Assembly: GCA_964546795.1 (NCBI GenBank)
Contig: CAZJKG010000004.1
Coordinates: 18,994-82,993, forward strand
From: an uncultured Candidatus Saccharibacteria bacterium
GTDB taxonomy: Bacteria; Patescibacteriota; Minisyncoccia; Phycocordibacterales; Phycocordibacteraceae
Direction: 5' to 3'
Length of the DNA stretch: 64,000 nucleotides
Shown here: piece after piece, positions 2,363 to 61,815 of the stretch
Numbering within the stretch: the first letter of the stretch is position 1
Layout of the letters: each line of letters opens with the position of its first letter
Program-made: the position numbers and the translations under genes
Notes under the pieces: model-generated
Seen by the model: the letters and a program-made list of their open reading frames with translations, nothing else
Told to the model about the DNA's origin: nothing
Databases searched by the model: none

Positions 2363-3688
2363 TTAGCCCGTCCAACGAGCGGCAAGGATGGAGAAGTCGG
2401 TGAGGTTAACTTTACCGTCGTTATTGAGGTCCGCTTTCGTTCCATTACCAGAAAGTGTTCGTTTATACCAATAGGCCACTATGGAGAAATCAACAAGGTT
2501 GACGCGCGTGTCAGTATTAATATCGCCAATGCTAGTTTTTTTAACCAGTTCCGCTAAGACATTTTTTGTTCCCACTTTGAAATTCACTGCGGGACTGAGT
2601 CCACTTACAAGCTGATTTCCTATAAGTGCTTTTGATTGGGCACTGTGCGAACCATATTCAAGCACCGAACTGTCAAAGTTATACAGATAGACACCGATCT
2701 TATCAGAAATCGTTTTCCCAAAGTATGTTTGGTCCGAATTGACAGAAATGACAATATCGCTTTGCGGGGCCGATTGTCCGAAAAGTGTGATGATATCGCC
2801 TCGATTTACTTCACTCTTGTTCGCCGCAATGGTTGGTGCAATGAAAATACCCGTCACATTCGTTGTAACGCCAGCGGTTAAACTTACGGGAAAAGAGAGG
2901 AGTGCTGAGCGATTGCCGTTATTGTCTTCACTGTACACCGAAAAAATAAAATTTCCCGCGCTGAGATTCGCTACGTTTATCTGAAACGTAGCATCTGGCC
3001 CTGCGATTGATGTGGCTACAACTTGCGCATCCTTGAGAATCGTAACTGTTCTGCTCGGGTATGCTCTGCCGCTAAAGTTTGCGCCGGTGTTTGAGACAGG
3101 AATTATTGCACCGCCTCCTCCTCCGCCACCGCCACCGCCACCTCCTCCGCCACCGCCACTATCAGAAGCTGCGGGGGTTCCCGACGTCTGTGTTGATGTT
3201 GCAATTCTGTTACCAAACGCATCTTTAGGGTTAACGACAAAATAATACGTTGTGCCATTCGTGAGCCCTGTCCTCGTTGAGGAAGTCACATTTCCTAGCG
3301 AAGAATACGTGTAAGGACCGCCAGAGGTTGTGGACTGTCCGACGTCATATCCCGAGACCGTCCAACCTATAAATCCTTCCGAGGCCGTCCAGGTGAGTGC
3401 CACTTGAGCATCGCCGGCCGTCGCGCCAACGGCCGGCGTTGATACGAAAGGATACGCGATAAAACCAGGATTGATACTGAAGGAGGTTGCACTGCTCGTA
3501 CTGTGGGCAAATTCGGAAATACTGCTGAAGAGCGTGAAGCTACTTGAAGTCGCGTATCCGCCTGGATTCATGACCGGGCTAAGCACTTGATAAGTGGTGG
3601 AAGTAAGATCTTCCGCATGAGCGATATCGAATCCGATACTCACGAAGAGCAAGAGAAATGTTCCCCATCGAAAGATTCTTTTACACAT
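2363..3688 (-). CDS. Secreted fibronectin type III / poly-Gly linker / type-I dockerin domain protein
   Basis: Signal peptide. FN3-like segment (ALTWTASEG...GTTYYFVV). 16 consecutive Gly codons. C-terminal tandem Ca-binding dockerin repeats GDINTDTRVNLVDFSIVAYWY and ADLNNDGKVNLTDFSILAARW. Confidence 0.6.
   Translation of the reverse strand: MCKRIFRWGTFLLLFVSIGFDIAHAEDLTSTTYQVLSPVMNPGGYATSSSFTLFSSISEFAHSTSSATSFSINPGFIAYPFVSTPAVGATAGDAQVALTWTASEGFIGWTVSGYDVGQSTTSGGPYTYSSLGNVTSSTRTGLTNGTTYYFVVNPKDAFGNRIATSTQTSGTPAASDSGGGGGGGGGGGGGGGGAIIPVSNTGANFSGRAYPSRTVTILKDAQVVATSIAGPDATFQINVANLSAGNFIFSVYSEDNNGNRSALLSFPVSLTAGVTTNVTGIFIAPTIAANKSEVNRGDIITLFGQSAPQSDIVISVNSDQTYFGKTISDKIGVYLYNFDSSVLEYGSHSAQSKALIGNQLVSGLSPAVNFKVGTKNVLAELVKKTSIGDINTDTRVNLVDFSIVAYWYKRTLSGNGTKADLNNDGKVNLTDFSILAARWTG
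3110..3157 (-). repeat. (GGN)16 simple-sequence tract encoding a poly-glycine linker
   Basis: Plus strand reads ccgcctcctcctccgccaccgccaccgccacctcctccgccaccgcc. Codon phase checked against the ORF end at 2363. Confidence 0.9.
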
Positions 3689-12780: not shown

Positions 12781-13202
12781 GGGGGTGACCGGCTTTGACG
12801 GTCTGTACCTTGAAAGACGTGCGACGCAGTGCACTCCCGTCATCACTTAAAAACGCGGGAAAACAAACTTGCCAAGAACACTCTTGCAAGCGCAATGAAG
12901 TCGCCTTACTTCGGTAAGGTTGGCGACATCGCGTTCGCCTACGCGACGGCTCGCGGCTAACGCCCGACGCCCTCGCCCAGCGCGACGTTCATCCTCTCGA
13001 GTTCCCGCAGTCGGAGGCATGGGCGGAATTATCTGCGTGATCGTCCCTCGCGTTCCCACGCGTTGGGATTAAATAAGGGATCGAGCAGGAATGGTTTCGT
13101 CTGCGTTCCTCGCATCCTGTTTTAGACACTAACGCTGACTATGCGTCGTAGAAGCGCTTTCATAGACGGATTCGGACCGGAGTTCAACTCTCCGCACCTC
13201 CA
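12781..13202 (+). ncRNA. ssrA: tmRNA (ssrA)
   Basis: 5' end GGGGGUGACCGGCUUUGACGG resembles E. coli GGGGCUGAUUCUGGAUUCGACGGG. 3' end UUCGGACCGGAGUUCAACUCUCCGCACCUCCAC resembles UUCGGACGCGGGUUCAACUCCCGCCAGCUCCACCA. Acceptor GGGGGUG/CACCUCC has G3:U70. Lies immediately downstream of smpB. Confidence 0.8.
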
Positions 13203-13282
13203 CAAAATAACGAGTCCTTCCGAGGACGACTATATTTTGTGAGAATCCCGAGCGTACTCGCGAGGGGCTCCACAACAAACAT

Positions 13283-14085: not shown

Positions 14086-14170
14086 GTGCTGGTGGCGGAA
14101 GCGGTATACGCATCTACTTTGTGAGTAGGTATCCTGCGCGGATGTGCGGGTTCAAGTCCCGTCCAGTACA
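14086..14170 (+). tRNA. Atypical class II tRNA: Leu-type body with UGU (Thr) anticodon, G3:U70, A73
   Basis: Acceptor GUGCUGG/CCAGUAC with G3:U70; D arm UGGCGGAAGCGGUAUACGC (compare E. coli tRNA-Leu UGGCGGAAUUGGUAGACGC); anticodon stem UCUAC/GUAGG; loop UUUGUGA; 16-nt variable stem-loop; T arm GCGGG-UUCAAGU-CCCGU; discriminator A. Abuts the candidate rnpB 3' end. Confidence 0.55.
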
Positions 14171-14464
14171 CATCATTACAGCAGAGTAGTGGCGAGTTTC
14201 CTATTAAAATCTACCCTGTAGGGAAAGTATACCCCACCCGTTGAGCGTTATCCACATCCTTACCCGAGGGATTAAGATAGACCTATGAACAACTTCAAGA
14301 ACCTAGCCGACTTTAATAGAGGGGTGTGGACAACGTGTGGTAAGTCGTATACACTATCTGTATATTAATAACTAGGAAGTTGTGAATTTTTGCGGGAGTG
14401 AAAAATTGCAGAAAGGCTCTACTGCGGGGTGTAATTAGGCTAGCGCGAGCTAGAATCGAAAGCA

Positions 14465-34557: not shown

Positions 34558-34615
34558 TTTACTGTCAAGTGCCGTAGCATCAATGAAATCATCAAGGGAG
34601 CCGTCGAGGGCCTCA
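34558..34615 (-). pseudogene. Remnant of a release factor 2 C-terminus
   Basis: Encodes ...ALDGSLDDFIDATALDSK*. Compare E. coli RF2 C-terminus VLDGSLDQFIEASLKAGL and the intact local prfB C-terminus [17 protein letters not shown]. Lies directly downstream of the hicA stop. Confidence 0.3.
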
Positions 34616-34804
34616 TTTCGGTGGCCACGGGACGGCGAGCTGGCGACAGATGGCGCGGGCGGTATTTTCCAATAAGTTTGCGTGCCGAGGTACCGATGTC
34701 TGAACGCCAGTAACAAGGTTGCGGTAGATAGAATGCTTCGCACCCTCCCGCAAGAGAATACAGTCGTTTTGAAGGAGGTGTGCGACGAGTTTCGTGCGCC
34801 TCAT
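34613..34804 (-). CDS. hicA: HicA-family toxin (type II TA mRNA interferase)
   Basis: KLVAHLLQNDCILLREGAKHSIYRN...TSVPRHANLLENTARAICRQLAV follows the HicA pattern (G.....GSHh...P.H...L...T...I.RQ). Overlaps the upstream hicB by 4 nt. Confidence 0.7.
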   Translation of the reverse strand: MRRTKLVAHLLQNDCILLREGAKHSIYRNLVTGVQTSVPRHANLLENTARAICRQLAVPWPPK

Positions 34805-35049
34805 GCAACCACGTGTACTGGAAATGAAATCGACGAGCGCTCAACGTCTCCTTCTACGCCTTTGAAAGACATGATGCGGTTCGTCTCGAGCATGAGTTCG
34901 AGAGCATCTTTTATGTTTATTTTTGCTTCGGCTTTCGTCTTGCCTTCAGAGATGACATTTGGCATCTCTTCGATCCATGTCGTATACCCGCCGCGCACCT
35001 TCTGAAAGACGGCAGTAAAGGTATTTACTTTCTGTGACCCCTTATTCAT
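34801..35049 (-). CDS. hicB: HicB-family antitoxin (UPF0150)
   Basis: FTAVFQKVRGGYTTWIEEMPNVISEGKTKAEAKINIKDALELMLE is the typical HicB N-terminal RNase-H-like fold. Confidence 0.7.
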   Translation of the reverse strand: MNKGSQKVNTFTAVFQKVRGGYTTWIEEMPNVISEGKTKAEAKINIKDALELMLETNRIMSFKGVEGDVERSSISFPVHVVA

Positions 35050-35059
35050 ACGGTTAATA

Positions 35060-35929
35060 CTATGCGCTCTTGACTACTGCGTCAATGAAGCCGTCCAGAT
35101 CGCCCTCGAGGACCTTATCTGGATTGGAGGATTCGTGGCCCGTACGATGGTCTTTGACCATTTTGTAGGGGTGGAGGACATAGGAGCGGATCTGGCTCCC
35201 CCACTCGTTGGCGGTCGTCGCAGCGATAGAGCGGCCCTTCGCTTCGCTCTGGCGCTGTGCCTCTTCCTTTGTGAATATTTTTGCCTTCAAAAGTTCGATT
35301 GCCCGCTCCCGATTTGCTAGCTGACTGCGTTCGCTTGAGACATGCACTGAAAGATTGGTCGGGACGTGGAGGATGCGCACAGCCGTCTCGCGTTTATTCA
35401 CGTTTTGGCCGCCGGCGCCGCCCGAACGCGCGAATTGTATCTCCAGGTCGTCCGGCTTGAGGTCTACTTTGTCGGTCGCAACCAGGGTCGGCAACACTTC
35501 CACGAGCGCAAAACTCGTCTGACGCTTCGCATTCGCGTTGAAGGGCGATTGGCGCACCAAGCGATGCACACCCGCTTCGTGTTTTAAACGGCCATAGGCA
35601 CCAGCACCAGTTATTTCAAGCATGACGTTACGATACCCGCCCTGATCGTTCTCATTCGCGTGTAGTTCGCGTACGCGCCAACCCTTCTGCGCCGCATATC
35701 CTTCATACATGCGGCGGAGCATGCGTGCGAAATCCTCGGCATCATCCCCGCCTGCGCCCGCGAGGATGGCAAGCGTTGCGTTGCCGGCATCATGCGAATC
35801 GCCGCTACCACCCTCCTTCAGATTCTGATATTCTTGTACGAGTTCCTGTGCTTTGTTCTTGTCCGACCAGAAATCAGGCGATGCCATCATCGCTTCCAGT
35901 TCTGACAGTCGCTTCTCGTTTTCCTTCAT
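35060..35929 (-). CDS. prfB: Peptide chain release factor 2 (N-terminally short, no programmed frameshift)
   Basis: SPF tripeptide motif (RQSPFNA) and GGQ ([10 protein letters not shown]). The start is 1 nt from tRNA-Thr, leaving no room for the canonical +1 frameshift segment. Confidence 0.9.
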
Positions 35930-35930
35930 G

Positions 35931-36003
35931 AGCCGGAGATCGGATTCGGACCGATGGCCTACCCCTTACGAAGGGGTTGCTCTACCAACTGAGCTACTCC
36001 GGC
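35931..36003 (-). tRNA. tRNA-Thr (CGU)
   Basis: Acceptor GCCGGAG/CUCCGGC; D arm GCUC-AGUUGGUA-GAGC; anticodon stem ACCCC/GGGGU; loop UUCGUAA; T arm AUCGG-UCCGAAU-CCGAU. Confidence 0.85.
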
Positions 36004-36025
36004 AGGTGAGTATATGAAGAAATTA

Positions 36026-36478
36026 TCATGATTTCTTCTTTCTAGCGAGAAGTTTTCCTTCTTGTGCCCGCTTACTTGGTGCCCGTGATGACCTTCCGTT
36101 TCCCTTATTTGAACCTCCATATGTTGGATTCAACGCATCGCAATTCGGACATACGAGACGGAGATTTTCTTCAGAATTATTACGCCAATTGCCATCAATA
36201 TGGTCAGCGACCAGCGGTACAAGATTTGTCTTTGGGTTAACTCTCGCCCACCCGCAGAGTAGACATCTGTTGTCGAACTTCTCCCGAAGATATTTCTTTA
36301 CCGGTTTCGAAACCAATCCTATAGAACTCAGACCGCTTATATTACCACTTTTCCATCGCTTTATATATTCCCGGTATTGGAATTCATGCTGACAATTATT
36401 ACTGCAATATCTGTAAAATGAGCGAGCAGGTTCTTTGTCGCATACAGGACATTTTGGTCTCGGTTTCTTCGGATTCAT
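36026..36478 (-). CDS. HNH endonuclease
   Basis: CPVCDK...C..NC zinc knuckle plus HNH core DHIDGNWRNNSEENLRLVCPNCDALN. Sits between two tRNA genes. Confidence 0.75.
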   Translation of the reverse strand: MNPKKPRPKCPVCDKEPARSFYRYCSNNCQHEFQYREYIKRWKSGNISGLSSIGLVSKPVKKYLREKFDNRCLLCGWARVNPKTNLVPLVADHIDGNWRNNSEENLRLVCPNCDALNPTYGGSNKGNGRSSRAPSKRAQEGKLLARKKKS

Positions 36479-36563
36479 TCATGCATTATAGCTGAAACGC
36501 AGACCATTTTTGTCATATAACAATGGTCGTATGTTGATAACGAAGTTGACCTACCTTTGATTC

Positions 36564-36824
36564 TGGAGCCGAGAGTCGGGATTGAACCGACGACCTCGTC
36601 CTTCGCTTTTACCTTCTCTCCTTATGCCGCGTAAAGAAGGGCTAGACTGTATCTTTGCCCCTAGGGGGCACCCTTGTCAGTCGTTCGGGCCTTCAAAAAG
36701 AGTGCCACGGTCTTGGCCAGCGGGGCTATTAACCGTTATTCGGGATTCATCCCAGTATTGCTATTAGGATGGGCGGAGTTTGCGACCCACCATGGACGTG
36801 CTCTACCAACTGAGCTATCTCGGC
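36564..36824 (-). tRNA. tRNA-Thr (GGU) interrupted by a 185-nt intron in the anticodon loop; CCA encoded
   Basis: Exon 1 is 36789-36824: GCCGAGA-UA-GCUC-AGUUGGUA-GAGC-A-CGUCC-AUGGU. Exon 2 is 36564-36603: AA-GGACG-AGGUC-GUCGG-UUCAAUC-CCGAC-UCUCGGC-U-CCA. Acceptor halves are exactly complementary, and the joined loop AUGGUAA is the canonical Thr loop. Confidence 0.7.
36604..36788 (-). other. Intron in tRNA-Thr(GGU), inserted between anticodon positions 36 and 37; group-I-like splice-site rules
   Basis: 5' exon ends in U36. Intron begins GGGUCGCAAAC and ends ...AAAAGCG with a terminal G. Length is 185 nt and it has no internal ORF. Fold not verified. Confidence 0.5.
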
Positions 36825-36842
36825 TTCATGCACCTCTACATA

Positions 36843-37439
36843 CTAACGGAGTTCTTTCATTCTTTCAATTTCGCCGATCAAAATATTACGTAATTTTTTA
36901 TTATTAAAATAAACAGTGAGCACTCCATGCTTGGACTTCGTCCGGTAAGTTCCGATACTACCAGAGCGAGTATTGATAATTTTATAGAACTGTCGTGGGG
37001 AAACTTTGAGAAAACGCTGCCAGAATTGTTCTTCTTTCACCTGATCCATATCGCGAAAAATTTGCAGGCCGAAACGAAGACGAGATTCATCAATAGCGTA
37101 AGCTTTTCTTAAAAAGAGGATGAAAGACCGTACTAGATAAGGATCGGTATTGCCAAGTCGTACGGATGTTGGGTTCATTTTAGTACCTTCACCCCAATAT
37201 AAACCGAGACCAAGACCGAAAAGAAATGATTCTTTATTTGTTCGGTGGATTTGAAGCGAAAAAGGATCTCCATGTGGATTGTGTTTCGTATATATCGCCT
37301 CGCTAATCGAACGCTTTGAAATAGAATATTTATCTAGCCAATAATTTATCTTTCCATCGGAACAATGAAATGCTTGAGCGATATCGTGCACCGATTTTCG
37401 ATCGCGAATGTACCAATGCTCCAACAATTTCTTATTCAT
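36843..37439 (-). CDS. LAGLIDADG-type homing-endonuclease-like protein with N-terminal HTH, free-standing
   Basis: FLFGLGLGLYWGEGTK is a LAGLIDADG-motif variant. N-terminal HTH-like segment (SVHDIAQAFHCSDGKINYWL). Paralog of 61048..61815. Lies immediately upstream of the intron-containing tRNA-Thr. Confidence 0.65.
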   Translation of the reverse strand: MNKKLLEHWYIRDRKSVHDIAQAFHCSDGKINYWLDKYSISKRSISEAIYTKHNPHGDPFSLQIHRTNKESFLFGLGLGLYWGEGTKMNPTSVRLGNTDPYLVRSFILFLRKAYAIDESRLRFGLQIFRDMDQVKEEQFWQRFLKVSPRQFYKIINTRSGSIGTYRTKSKHGVLTVYFNNKKLRNILIGEIERMKELR

Positions 37440-37502
37440 TACTGCTAGTATCCCAACTATGATCTATTTAGTAAAGTAGTACCTGTGGATATATAAACTC
37501 TA

Positions 37503-37832
37503 CTAATACAGCAACACCCCAATCACGACCACGCTGTTGAAAACAGCCATAAGCATGTTCGCGAAGAAAATATGTTTGTCTTTATGCACGGCGCCATATG
37601 TCGCCCAAAGCGTGTTAAATAAAATGAAAAGAAGCCAAGTCGGAAGCGCTAGTCCGGCACCGCTCTTCGTCGTATAGATTTGCAGGATTTGCGGCACGAG
37701 CGCCAGTGGCGCGAAGATGCCGACGCCGTACATAACATAATCAAGAGTGCGTTTCCACGCATTCTTAGATGGAAACGGTTCAAGACCATTTGTAGCACGA
37801 ATACGCGCCCCTATGTGGTGAAAACCGAGCAT
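37503..37832 (-). CDS. SemiSWEET / PQ-loop small transporter
   Basis: About 109 aa with three TM helices and the PQ motif LALVPQILQIY. Confidence 0.6.
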   Translation of the reverse strand: MLGFHHIGARIRATNGLEPFPSKNAWKRTLDYVMYGVGIFAPLALVPQILQIYTTKSGAGLALPTWLLFILFNTLWATYGAVHKDKHIFFANMLMAVFNSVVVIGVLLY

Positions 37833-37910
37833 GGATTAAGAGCTTCTTGTAAATATAGCACGACAAAACTCTCGCATCACGAGAAAAAATCTTTTTGGGG
37901 AAATACGGTG

Positions 37911-37984
37911 CGCGAGAGACGGGACTTGAACCCGCAACCTCCGCCGTGACAGGGCGGCGCTCTAACCAGTTGAGCTACTCCCGC
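37911..37984 (-). tRNA. tRNA-Asp (GUC)
   Basis: Acceptor GCGGGAG/CUCUCGC (G4:U69); D arm GCUC-AACUGGUUA-GAGC; anticodon stem CCGCC/GGCGG; loop CUGUCAC; T arm GCGGG-UUCAAGU-CCCGU; discriminator G. Confidence 0.85.
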
Positions 37985-38158
37985 AAGCGAGGAGAAATCT
38001 ACAAGCTCGCTTGTATGTTCTCCGAGCGCAGCGGGAGCAAGCTTGCCTCAAGCTTACTACCGCAGCATTCGGATGTATCCTACCAAAATCCTTTAAAAAT
38101 GTCGTGTGCGACCAAGAAAACAAGGAGCGGAGCGATTATGTTTTCTGAAGTACTCTTG

Positions 38159-38235
38159 TGGTGCCGGCGGAAGGACTTGCACCTTCGACCTTGGCTTTAT
38201 GAATGCCATGCTCTAACTACCTGAGCTACGCCGGC
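38159..38235 (-). tRNA. tRNA-Met (CAU), elongator type; CCA encoded
   Basis: Acceptor GCCGGCG/CGCCGGC (G1-C72); D arm GCUC-AGGUAGUUA-GAGC; anticodon stem UGGCA/AGCCA; loop UUCAUAA; T arm GAAGG-UGCAAGU-CCUUC; A73 then CCA. Confidence 0.8.
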
Positions 38236-60476: not shown

Positions 60477-60627
60477 ATATTAACTCTAGCGTATTTTATT
60501 GCGACCACTTAAAGCGAGTTTCGCAACAAGCAAATGAGAAAGCCGCCTTTCGGCGGCCTCTCATTATTGAATCTTCATTGCGGGTCGCCTGTGGCGAACC
60601 TCGCAACAAATTTTCTCTGAAAATTTG

Positions 60628-60950
60628 TTGCGGGGGCCGGAATTGAACCGGCGTCTGGAGGTTATGCTTACCACTACAATTTTCATTGCCCTATGGTTTG
60701 TGGTCTGGACTATGCCTTCACCCCTTATCACTTTCAGTAAGAAAGTGGTAAAGGGTATCTACCGTCTAGTCTCTACACCTTCTCCTTGTCGCTTTCATCA
60801 CTGAAAGTGGTGAAAGTGACAAGGAGCTTGGCTCGGTGTTGCCTTTCGCATTGCGAGAGGGGTTCGCCGAATTTGGCAGATAATCTTATGCGCAATTACT
60901 CACGCACACGCCCGTGAAAGCCTCCCGAGGTACCTCTCCTCTACCCCGCG
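60628..60950 (-). tRNA. Initiator-like tRNA-Met (CAU) interrupted by a 252-nt intron in the anticodon loop
   Basis: Exon 1 is 60919-60950: CGCGGGG-U-A-GAGG-AGAGGUA-CCUC-G-GGAGG-CU. Exon 2 is 60628-60666: CAUAA-CCUCC-AGAC-GCCGG-UUCAAUU-CCGGC-CCCCGCA-A. The joined loop CUCAUAA is the canonical Met loop. C1xA72 is unpaired, a bacterial initiator hallmark, while pairs 2-7 are perfect. Confidence 0.65.
60667..60918 (-). other. Group-I-like intron in tRNA-fMet, inserted between positions 33 and 34
   Basis: 5' exon ends in U33. Intron begins UUCACGGGCG and ends ...GUGGUAAG with a terminal G. Size (252 nt) is typical of bacterial tRNA group I introns. No ORF inside. Fold not verified. Confidence 0.5.
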
Positions 60951-61047: not shown

Positions 61048-61815
61048 ATGAAAATAATTGCGCGAGCGAAAGCAGAACTGTTAAGACATCAAGGAAAAAG
61101 TATCAAAGAAATTGCTCGTTTAGTTGACGTCAGTCAAGGTACCGCAAGTCGTTGGTGCTCTGGTATCAATCTTTCCCCAGAACAGCATCGCGAGCTTGAA
61201 AAGAAGCGGCGAGAAGCGGGTGCAAAAGCGCTTGCTCCTTGGATACGTAGGAATCGTGAATTGAAACAAAACGATATTAAGAAACAAAAACAGCAAGGTC
61301 GCCAAGATCTTGGTCGGATGACAAAAAAGGATTTATTTATACTTGGTCTTGGTCTTTACTGGGGAGAGGGATATAAACGCGGTAGTCAAGAATGGGGATT
61401 TACGAATTCGGACCCTGGAATGATAGGAGTCATTCTTGTATGGCTTCTCAAATATTATGACGTACCAATTGAACGCATCATCGCCCGACTCACGATAAAT
61501 CAACTTTATAAGAATCAAACTGAGCGTCTTATGAGCGCATGGGCATGCGAAACGGGTATCCCTCTTTCTCAATTCGGAAAACCAACTTTCATAAGCGGCT
61601 ACAACAATTCTAAATTGGATGAACGCACCTATCGAGGTACTCTCCGCATTAAAGTACATCGGGGAACATCACTTCGACGACGTATATTGTCGAGCATCGC
61701 CGAAATACAGAATCAAATCACTTTTAACTCGCGAAAGACGGATTCGAAGCGCGCGATAGTGCGGCGCGCAAGCGATTCTGAAAGATTGAAAGCAGAACCC
61801 TCGTGCGCTATCTGA
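61048..61815 (+). CDS. LAGLIDADG-type homing-endonuclease-like protein with N-terminal HTH (paralog of 36843..37439)
   Basis: N-terminal HTH (KSIKEIARLVDVSQGTASRWC); LFILGLGLYWGEGYK is a LAGLIDADG-motif variant. Free-standing, about 100 bp from the intron-containing tRNA-fMet. Confidence 0.6.
   Translation: MKIIARAKAELLRHQGKSIKEIARLVDVSQGTASRWCSGINLSPEQHRELEKKRREAGAKALAPWIRRNRELKQNDIKKQKQQGRQDLGRMTKKDLFILGLGLYWGEGYKRGSQEWGFTNSDPGMIGVILVWLLKYYDVPIERIIARLTINQLYKNQTERLMSAWACETGIPLSQFGKPTFISGYNNSKLDERTYRGTLRIKVHRGTSLRRRILSSIAEIQNQITFNSRKTDSKRAIVRRASDSERLKAEPSCAI

Follow-up and report, generated by a model that had tools for sequence, protein, structure and literature searches.

A Patescibacteria tRNA gene cluster with a compact group I intron and two free-standing genes of candidate tRNA-directed homing endonucleases

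Results

Layout of the tRNA gene cluster

The 64,000-nucleotide (nt) stretch of DNA analysed here as a whole (the window) comes from an uncultured Candidatus Saccharibacteria bacterium of the Patescibacteriota and contains a 2.3-kb tRNA gene cluster (35930-38235) that also holds two genes of nuclease type and an intron. The entire cluster lies on the minus strand and reads, from 5' to 3', tRNA-Met, tRNA-Asp, a SemiSWEET transporter gene, an open reading frame (ORF) whose 198-amino-acid (aa) product was given the working name X198, a split tRNA-Thr(GGU), an HNH endonuclease gene, tRNA-Thr(CGU) and a prfB-like gene (Table 1). Each element that the original prediction, made from the sequence of the stretch, had listed for this cluster was present on this strand and at its expected position. 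The Met-Asp tRNA pair adjoins Thr tRNA genes in many relatives as well. Loci fetched from relatives or homologues are designated by L numbers.

Table 1. Features of the tRNA gene cluster and of a second, related locus of the window.
Feature	Positions	Strand	Evidence or remark
tRNA-Met(CAU)	38159-38235	-	ARAGORN; Rfam tRNA, 61.7 bits; first gene of the array
tRNA-Asp(GUC)	37910-37984	-	ARAGORN; Rfam tRNA, 70.2 bits
SemiSWEET (PQ-loop) transporter gene, 109 aa	37503-37832	-	Pfam MtN3_slv; NCBIfam SemiSWEET_3
X198 gene, 198 aa	36843-37439	-	stop codon 18 nt upstream of tRNA-Thr(GGU)
tRNA-Thr(GGU), 5' exon	36789-36824	-	ends at anticodon nucleotide 36 (..CCATGGT); ARAGORN intron option and orthologue comparison
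Predicted ORF-less group I intron, 185 nt	36604-36788	-	between tRNA positions 36 and 37
tRNA-Thr(GGU), 3' exon	36564-36603	-	AAGGACG..CCA; ARAGORN intron option
HNH endonuclease gene, free-standing, 150 aa	36026-36478	-	ends 22 nt upstream of tRNA-Thr(CGU)
tRNA-Thr(CGU)	35930-36003	-	ARAGORN; Rfam tRNA, 69 bits
prfB-like release factor gene	35060-35929	-	Pfam PCRF, 3.2e-41; Pfam RF-1, 1.7e-35
Second X198-superfamily member, 255 aa (GLYWGEGYK..FTNSDP)	61048-61815	+	42% identical (tblastn) to the L131 paralogue that is linked to tRNA-Met
tRNA(CAU) with a 252-nt group I intron	60627-60950	-	ARAGORN intron option; Rfam Intron_gpI

A predicted group I intron in tRNA-Thr(GGU)

The split tRNA gene (36564-36824) was missed by ARAGORN with default settings and by Rfam. 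With its intron option, ARAGORN reported the gene with a 185-nt intron; a 2-nt ambiguity in the position of the intron boundary led it to assign the type Arg(GCG). The 5' exon was compared with 61 intron-bearing and about 50 intron-less orthologues. In 61 of 61 homologous introns the 5' exon ends in ..TGGT and the intron in G, and where the intron is missing, the orthologue at that position is tRNA-Thr(GGU); therefore the typing as Thr(GGU), which had been made from the sequence at the outset, is correct.

The 61 tRNA-Thr introns (165-254 nt; alignment A5) were tested against a hand-built group I structure consisting of P1 with an extension, P2, P3 to P9 and the P3/P7 pseudoknot. This structure paired 92.6% of the alignment cells, versus 31-48% when the 3' partners were slid by one to three columns, and 27 of its 45 pairs changed on both sides, with P4 and P7 invariant. 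All 61 introns have a U.G pair in P1 at the 5' splice site and the terminal G; together with the covarying P3-P9 core and its pseudoknot, these make up the hallmarks of a group I intron. The Rfam model Intron_gpI gave no match to the intron of the window at E ≤ 10, leaving the gathering score unreached, and only 26.9 bits for its L068 copy; the same model matched introns of other tRNA genes with 61.7 bits (tRNA-Tyr of L068), 47.5 bits (a tRNA(CAU) elsewhere in the window) and 38.8 bits (tRNA-Asp of L005). No ORF was found within any of the 61 introns. On the basis of these alignments, the tRNA-Thr(GGU) intron is a compact, ORF-less group I intron that is predicted to be self-splicing.

Bacterial tRNA genes are known to carry group I introns of the IC3 type, as in Azoarcus tRNA-Ile and cyanobacterial tRNA-Leu and tRNA-fMet. 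The present intron resembles these in interrupting the anticodon loop, in having a U.G pair at its 5' splice site and a terminal G, and in its P3-P9 core, which includes a pseudoknot. With 185 nt (165-254 nt in its family) it is shorter than that of Azoarcus, and it scores below threshold in Rfam; unlike the IC3 examples, it is inserted after position 36 of tRNA-Thr(GGU). A keyword search of one review (PMC3984707) found no mention of tRNA-Thr(GGU) as an intron host.

An additional covariation was observed between the P1-extension loop CGC (intron nt 5-7, 36784-36782) and the last three intron bases GCG (nt 183-185, 36606-36604), the terminal G included. In the alignment (columns 12-14 with 310-312), 98% of the cells are paired, both partners vary in two of the three pairs, and the variants CAC/GTG and CGT/ACG occur. 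This pairing may be a docking or an alternative pairing that places the 3' splice site.

Introns of about 200-250 nt were also observed in other tRNA genes of related genomes, namely Asp(GUC), Tyr(GUA) and Met(CAU) (L005:497-777, L100:349-639, L068:3129-3423, L131:695-983 and L144:215-536), two of which reach or approach the Rfam group I score. Introns in tRNA genes seem to be common in this group of organisms and to be overlooked by default tRNA scans. Since the split tRNA-Thr(GGU) is missed by default tRNA and Rfam scans, such genomes would appear to be without that tRNA, which is a warning for their annotation.

The HNH gene

The 150-aa ORF downstream of the split tRNA matched HNH families of PHROGs with E-values of 2.8e-17 to 5.7e-14 and Pfam HNH_3 with 20.4 bits, under the cut-off of 24.8 bits; some of its close homologues, which number more than 1000, carry a precomputed PF13392 match. 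Residues D92-H93, N100/N101, N112 and C72/C75/C110/C113 were invariant in 18 sequences, so that the DH..N..N motif and two CxxC pairs are kept throughout, as is an N-terminal CxxC..CxxxC zinc finger. These residues comprise the catalytic His, the conserved Asn and the Zn-binding Cys pairs that define the beta-beta-alpha-metal motif, and the identity of the ORF as an HNH (His-Me finger) endonuclease is well supported by these comparisons. Among NCBIfam models, ZorE of the Zorya anti-phage system matched far below threshold (21.3 bits versus a cut-off of 600 bits).

The X198 protein family

Searches with X198 returned 1964 proteins at E ≤ 1e-3, nearly all of about 198 aa and 55-86% identical, and 57 columns were invariant across 16 sequences. 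Most of the matches are nameless; homologues with a source name are mostly called 'hypothetical' and come mainly from metagenome-assembled genomes of Parcubacteria or Minisyncoccota. When 1.84 billion representatives were searched with a profile, 6621 clusters matched at E ≤ 1e-3 and 1876 of them at E ≤ 1e-10, counts that include any clusters matching only the N-terminal helix-turn-helix (HTH) module. This module occupies the first 50 or so residues, was identified as HTH_23 in 105 of 117 relatives and is common to phage 'HNH endonuclease' PHROGs. The module, with about 48 residues per copy, was also observed in 5-14 tandem copies in proteins of 400-820 aa (P0370, P0374, P0375 and others), an arrangement that recalls the repeated DNA-binding modules of some phage nucleases.

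The C-terminal domain carries a near-invariant motif, GLYWGEGxK..N(S/T)DP, and had no match in Pfam or NCBIfam. Searches with the single protein against Pfam, NCBIfam, PHROGs and PDB sequences returned only the HTH and chance matches to nanobodies. LAGLIDADG was absent from the 25 most-matched of the 122 Pfam families to which 117 members of the family had a match at E ≤ 10, and from the NCBIfam matches altogether. When the family profile was compared with PDB sequences, the best non-HTH match was to I-DmoI (E = 0.036), in which the X198 motif and the helix that follows it align to the second LAGLIDADG motif (GLYVAEGDK..NKN, then a helix). The same alignment was repeated by hhalign with E = 1.4e-3 and a probability of 18%; a comparison with I-CreI by hhalign gave nothing. 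AlphaFold, supplied with a deep alignment, produced a confident model of the domain (predicted local distance difference test score 92). The top TM-scores of this model, 0.36-0.46, were obtained with intein homing-endonuclease domains and annotated homing endonucleases, and OmpA-like and IspF proteins gave equally weak ones. As modelled, X198 has a helix that ends in G-E-G-x-K, followed by a beta-hairpin, N-S/T-D and a helix, a succession that may correspond to LAGLIDADG motif 2 of I-DmoI; it differs from LAGLIDADG enzymes (I-DmoI, I-CreI and intein endonuclease domains) in extra helices between the later strands and in its N-terminal HTH. 'LAGLIDADG-like', the name under which X198 had originally been described, is a reasonable lead and not an established membership: the I-DmoI motif and the TM-scores are weak signals that agree with each other, while Pfam, NCBIfam and the fold comparison gave nothing significant.

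Docking of both genes at tRNA genes

An X198-anchored sample was assembled from 80 species-level genomes encoding X198. The X198 gene was followed directly, and on the same strand, by tRNA-Thr(GGU) in 78 of the 80 loci. The ORF runs into the tRNA in 44 of 79 cases, and in 34 of 79 its first in-frame stop is formed by T8-A9-G10 of the tRNA. The wider surroundings vary, with Met-Asp...Thr(CGU)-prfB in Kaiserbacteria-like genomes and Thr(UGU)-Tyr-X198-Thr(GGU)...Trp in others, and the junction between X198 and the tRNA is the sole feature that stays constant across these lineage contexts.

Similar arrangements were observed for more distant relatives. Paralogues of 22-31% identity directly precede tRNA-Tyr (L019), tRNA-Met (L053 and L131) and tRNA-Trp (L076). 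Searches with these paralogues returned at least 1594 further proteins of about 225 aa, and the three members of that length chosen for their long contigs (L163, L166 and L168) all abut tRNA-Met, with gaps of 38, -39 and 1 nt. On viral contigs, six of six loci encoding distant X198 relatives lie among tRNA genes. The window itself contains a second member of the superfamily, which is divergent from, and 98 nt away from, a split tRNA(CAU); no tRNA was found downstream of it. By eye the split tRNA reads GGAGG-CU / intron / CAUAA-CCUCC, which places an Azoarcus-like intron between tRNA positions 33 and 34; the intron option of ARAGORN types the gene as Glu(UUC). The intron matched Rfam Intron_gpI at 60674-60926 (E = 5e-11), its 47.5 bits being just under the gathering score.

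The HNH gene is docked at a different tRNA. Seven contexts of orthologues were available (the window, L083, L087, L091, L170, L172/173 and L174), in which the gene ends 5-42 nt before tRNA-Thr(CGU) or overlaps it; more distant homologues flank tRNA-Thr(UGU) (L017, L023 and L079). At least 546 relatives were found on IMG/VR viral contigs. All 80 viral loci that were fetched contain tRNA genes, usually in dense arrays, and 45 of them have a tRNA within 150 nt downstream. In a few of the fetched loci (L250, L251, L252, L254 at 2941-3667, L192/L193 at 2831-3471 and L204 at 2652-3360), tRNA halves called by ARAGORN with the intron option enclose an HNH homologue; these 'introns' of 565-633 nt may be either chance calls or real intron-borne HNH copies.

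Chance co-location of nuclease genes and tRNA genes was considered and is ruled out by the family-wide synteny, because each gene keeps its place before its tRNA in dozens of independent genomes. Docking of both families at tRNA genes, viral contigs included, fits one of the two explanations that had been offered originally, namely nucleases that target tRNA loci, the targets themselves being putative.

A scan of the region for promoters and terminators gave match counts that were not above shuffle expectation. One sigma70-like match (TTGAAA-17-TAGTAT, 36868-36840, minus strand) lies within the last X198 codons, just upstream of tRNA-Thr(GGU); it could be the promoter of that tRNA, and we regard it as only a lead.

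Presence and absence among relatives

A second sample of 80 metagenomic loci was anchored on prfB, so that its composition is not biased by X198, HNH or the intron. Most of the loci that show the tRNA region have Thr(GGU) beside Thr(CGU) without any of the three, and in some the two tRNA genes are only 2-30 nt apart. In L127, the whole Met-Met-Asp-Thr-Thr array occupies about 600 nt; L092, L138, L112 and L118 are further examples of compact, insert-free arrays. Judged from these loci, the ancestral state is a compact Met-Asp-Thr(GGU)-Thr(CGU) array followed directly by prfB.

When the two samples were pooled, all four combinations of X198 and the intron were found: both in 56 loci, X198 alone in 26, the intron alone in 5 and neither in 27. 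The association between the two has an odds ratio of 12.6, calculated on 56/24 versus 5/27 after two loci with X198 alone were dropped, and uncorrected for phylogeny or for the two sampling schemes. Opposite states also occur among close relatives, whose prfB is 76-89% identical: the window, L005, L006 and L008 have both elements, and L084, L089, L090 and L091 have neither. L003 and L007 were counted as close by X198 identity alone (79% and 72%), no prfB match being present in either. L084 and L089 share the anticodon arm GCGCCATGGTAAGGCGC, without any difference, with the intron-bearing L003, L005 and L006.

The HNH gene is present in L083, L087, L091, L170, L172 and L174 and missing in L084, L085, L089, L090, L005 and L006, which are of similar relatedness. 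The slot before tRNA-Thr(CGU) that it occupies in some genomes is empty in others and is filled by an X198-type gene in L061. This L061 gene is at most 58% identical to any other copy and has its nearest relatives in distant hosts, although the prfB of L061 is 86% identical to that of the window. Decayed copies of X198 were found in the prfB-anchored sample, namely L140, with a frameshift inside the GLYWGEG motif, and L094, in which only a C-terminal remnant is left; both stand beside intron-less tRNAs. Signs of both invasion and decay were thus found, in the form of a host-discordant copy and of degenerate ones.

The HNH gene, the intron and X198 are three separable, optional inserts, and they are probably selfish. 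Presence/absence polymorphism at one and the same locus, as expected of free-standing homing endonuclease genes, was found for HNH and X198, and the synteny comparison that the original prediction had proposed revealed it for the intron too.

Selection and descent

Both X198 and HNH are under purifying selection, with proportions of nonsynonymous (pN) and synonymous (pS) differences of 0.12-0.24 and 0.70-0.87, respectively. At nonsynonymous sites they have diverged about twice as far as prfB and to a degree similar to SemiSWEET. The pattern is one of long persistence with frequent absence and not of a recent sweep. The original prediction had named universal conservation of both genes and the intron at this locus, coupled with purifying selection as in housekeeping genes, as the picture that would speak against it; such conservation is contradicted by the many absences, and purifying selection was indeed observed on both genes.

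Neighbouring genes

The SemiSWEET gene is an ordinary gene between tRNA-Asp and X198, and it adjoins X198 also in L003, L005 and L008. Its product has the make-up of a single PQ-loop/MtN3 three-helix unit of about 100 aa and matched Pfam MtN3_slv with 28.2 bits, above the cut-off of 23.7, and NCBIfam SemiSWEET_3 with E = 3.5e-16; the NCBIfam SemiSWEET models stayed under their cut-offs.

The prfB-like ORF begins at the base right after the 3' end of tRNA-Thr(CGU) (35929/35930), and this adjacency is kept in many relatives. The ORF is short (289 aa), and its PCRF match covers only the last 100 of 194 model positions. Downstream of it lies a pair of small genes (34613-35049, minus strand). One is an 82-aa ORF with a weak UPF0150 match, which we take to be HicB-like, and the other an overlapping 63-aa ORF (..REGAKHSIY..), which is presumably HicA-like; the two are probably a toxin-antitoxin pair.

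Elsewhere in the window, ARAGORN called a tRNA-Thr(UGU) of 86 nt at 14086-14171 (plus strand), which scored only 47.4 bits with the Rfam tRNA model and whose length suggests a long variable arm or mistyping. A tmRNA gene is located at 12781-13205.

Discussion

Our preferred reading, to which we assign a probability of roughly 60%, is that three optional elements invaded the tRNA array and that two of them, X198 and HNH, are free-standing homing endonuclease genes specialised for tRNA genes. It is drawn from sequence comparison and from analogy with phage systems. In this proposal, where DNA cleavage, the target sites, gene conversion and the effect of RNase P are steps that we infer, each nuclease would recognise the conserved DNA of a tRNA gene in a genome without the nuclease gene and cut in or beside that tRNA gene, and recombinational repair would copy the nuclease gene into the break. 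The nuclease gene would always abut a tRNA gene because it is copied into a break made there. Its position in the tRNA leader would supply transcription, and as many of the ORFs extend into the tRNA, cleavage by RNase P would sever the message at the stop codon or ahead of it and hold nuclease levels down.

A target of X198 that is plausible, though less certain, is the anticodon-loop site at which the intron is inserted. The neighbouring intron would then shield the resident tRNA gene and be copied along with X198, as in 'collaborative homing'. If X198 does cut anticodon-loop DNA, co-conversion would be favoured by its close linkage to the tRNA gene, and immunity would come from the intron. 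An intron-type anticodon arm was found in 5 of 23 intron-less tRNAs beside an intact X198 versus 21 of 27 without X198, a contrast that is confounded by lineage and gives an indirect hint of a target at the intron site. A wider version of this scheme is tentative, and we would give it well under even odds: X198-type proteins would constitute a very large, unrecognised LAGLIDADG-like branch located in the tRNA 5' leaders of Patescibacteria and in viral tRNA arrays, would cleave intron-less tRNA genes in their anticodon-loop DNA and thereby cause ORF-less group I introns to spread through collaborative homing, and would be limited in dosage by removal of the stop codon by RNase P, giving a non-stop mRNA. 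If true, it would explain the presence of introns in several tRNA genes (Thr, Met, Asp and Tyr).

Several observations weigh against the homing proposal. X198 has no significant match to any nuclease family, the I-DmoI profile match being the best, and Foldseek searches of PDB and BFVD with the X198 model returned nothing below E = 1e-3, all E-values being 2e-3 or higher. Both genes are constrained as strongly as ordinary host genes. X198 identity follows prfB identity in most loci, as mostly vertical inheritance accompanied by losses would produce. Even the closest pairs are saturated at synonymous sites, and no sign of recent transfer was seen; because this saturation extends to all pairs, the ratio of nonsynonymous to synonymous divergence tells only of purifying selection and recent transfer cannot be judged from it. 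The 26 intact X198 genes before intron-less tRNAs, of which at least that of L075 faces an intron-type anticodon arm, are awkward for a target at the intron site. Finally, a comparison of tRNA-Thr(CGU) and its 5' flank between genomes with and without HNH revealed no sequence difference that would provide self-immunity.

The kind of system proposed here is already known from phages. According to work on phage T4 (PMC2330249), segB, a free-standing GIY-YIG homing endonuclease gene in the tRNA cluster, is lacking in related phages; its product cleaves tRNA genes internally, at the conserved T-loop motif, and segB is preferentially inherited in crosses. The same source reports that processing of the downstream tRNA severs the segB message after its last sense codon and ahead of the stop codon, which its authors propose as a means of holding expression down (PMC2330249). 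The genes of the window are like segB in being free-standing nuclease-type genes between tRNA genes and in being missing from relatives whose tRNA region is otherwise homologous, and the X198 ORFs that stop at T8-A9-G10 match the arrangement of its message. Unlike SegB, a phage enzyme of the GIY-YIG family, they belong to HNH and LAGLIDADG-like families on a Patescibacteria chromosome, are known here from sequence alone, and are each tied to one particular tRNA species.

The F-Tfl enzymes of phage T5 are of HNH type. Their genes F-TflI and F-TflII, as well as F-TflIV, are located in the T5 tRNA cluster, as stated in PMC2330249 (its ref. 18). The HNH gene of the window shares with them the embedding of an endonuclease gene in a tRNA array, and its family occupies tRNA-rich stretches in the 80 viral loci; it differs in that its copy in the window is chromosomal and fixed before tRNA-Thr(CGU), and the likeness considered here is one of location.

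In collaborative homing, as described in the review PMC3984707, a free-standing nuclease targets an intron insertion site. Known cases (PMC3984707, PMC6083498 and PMC2790892) are F-CphI beside the intron-bearing psbA of cyanophage S-PM2 and T4 mobE with the I-TevIII intron. We liken X198 and the tRNA-Thr(GGU) intron to such pairs because X198 frequently pairs with an ORF-less intron; it adjoins the intron-bearing gene, and the two co-occur yet are also found apart. The host gene is here a tRNA, however, the nuclease-type gene is of another family with a putative target, and one third of the X198 copies have no adjacent intron.

Four other explanations were weighed. X198 might be a domesticated DNA-binding host protein, for instance a regulator of tRNA transcription or processing, that is inherited vertically, often lost, and either no longer or never a mobile nuclease. 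We consider this unlikely, even though the frequent HTH_23, the strong purifying selection with a divergence close to that of SemiSWEET and about twice that of prfB, the identity that mostly tracks prfB and the lack of a significant nuclease match would all suit such a protein. X198 is missing from most prfB-anchored relatives, close ones included; it has become a pseudogene in L140 and L094, and the host-discordant copy of L061 sits at a different tRNA. Moreover, the HNH family, which is surely of nuclease type, shows the same genomic behaviour, and GLYWGEGxK aligns with the LAGLIDADG catalytic motif.

Some LAGLIDADG proteins act as maturases, and X198 could likewise be a splicing helper for the tRNA-Thr(GGU) intron that is retained because the tRNA depends on it. 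The intron is present in 56 of 82 X198-linked tRNAs versus 5 of 32 without X198, and the second family member in the window also lies beside an intron-bearing tRNA. The idea is weakened because X198 and the intron are each found without the other: intact and conserved X198 genes precede 26 intron-less tRNAs, and at least five intron-bearing tRNA-Thr genes have no X198 (L061, L096, L101, L128 and L174, and probably L172). The acidic residue of the motif is conserved in intron-bearing and intron-less settings alike, and paralogues precede intron-less tRNA-Met genes. Splicing help as the main function of X198 was rejected on account of these separate occurrences, and we judge the whole explanation to be improbable.

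The other origin suggested by the original prediction, that both nuclease genes are former residents of this or another intron that were expelled into the flanking spacers, found no support. Enzymes of the LAGLIDADG and HNH types are commonly encoded by introns, and in the window both genes lie less than 100 nt from the intron-bearing tRNA; nevertheless, expulsion appears very improbable when none of the 61 tRNA-Thr introns carries an ORF, no intron-borne copy was found at the 78 X198-linked tRNA-Thr(GGU) genes or at the prfB-anchored loci, the HNH gene is linked to tRNA-Thr(CGU), an intron-less tRNA, and its viral homologues lie between intron-less tRNA genes. The smaller claim made with it, that both genes are free-standing and neither lies within the intron, agrees with the absence of ORFs from these introns. 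That X198 and HNH act on RNA, as tRNA-directed nucleases or toxins with the adjacent tRNA as a resistant or replacement copy, is suggested only by the tight family-wide linkage to particular tRNA genes and has very little chance of being right, given that no match to known anticodon nucleases was found (PADLOC was not searched), that HTH and zinc-finger modules are what homing endonucleases typically use to bind DNA, and that the precedent, SegB, acts on DNA.

A search of the literature library used here found no description of tRNA group I introns or of tRNA-flanking nuclease genes in Patescibacteria. Under the homing proposal, three things are new: the location on Patescibacteria chromosomes, a very large and uncharacterised LAGLIDADG-like family associated with the 5' ends of tRNAs, and the partial link between this family and ORF-less introns of tRNA genes. 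A family of thousands of proteins now called 'hypothetical' or 'HTH regulator' gains a hypothesis on its function that can be tested, and if X198-type proteins are site-specific nucleases, they would be a fresh source of enzymes aimed at tRNA-gene sequences. Since all four combinations of X198 and the intron exist, these genomes are a natural setting in which to test whether an ORF-less intron spreads jointly with a free-standing nuclease. Experiments have established only for phages T4 and T5 that nuclease genes live in tRNA clusters and have their messages trimmed when the tRNA matures, and this arrangement appears here to be common on Patescibacteria chromosomes.

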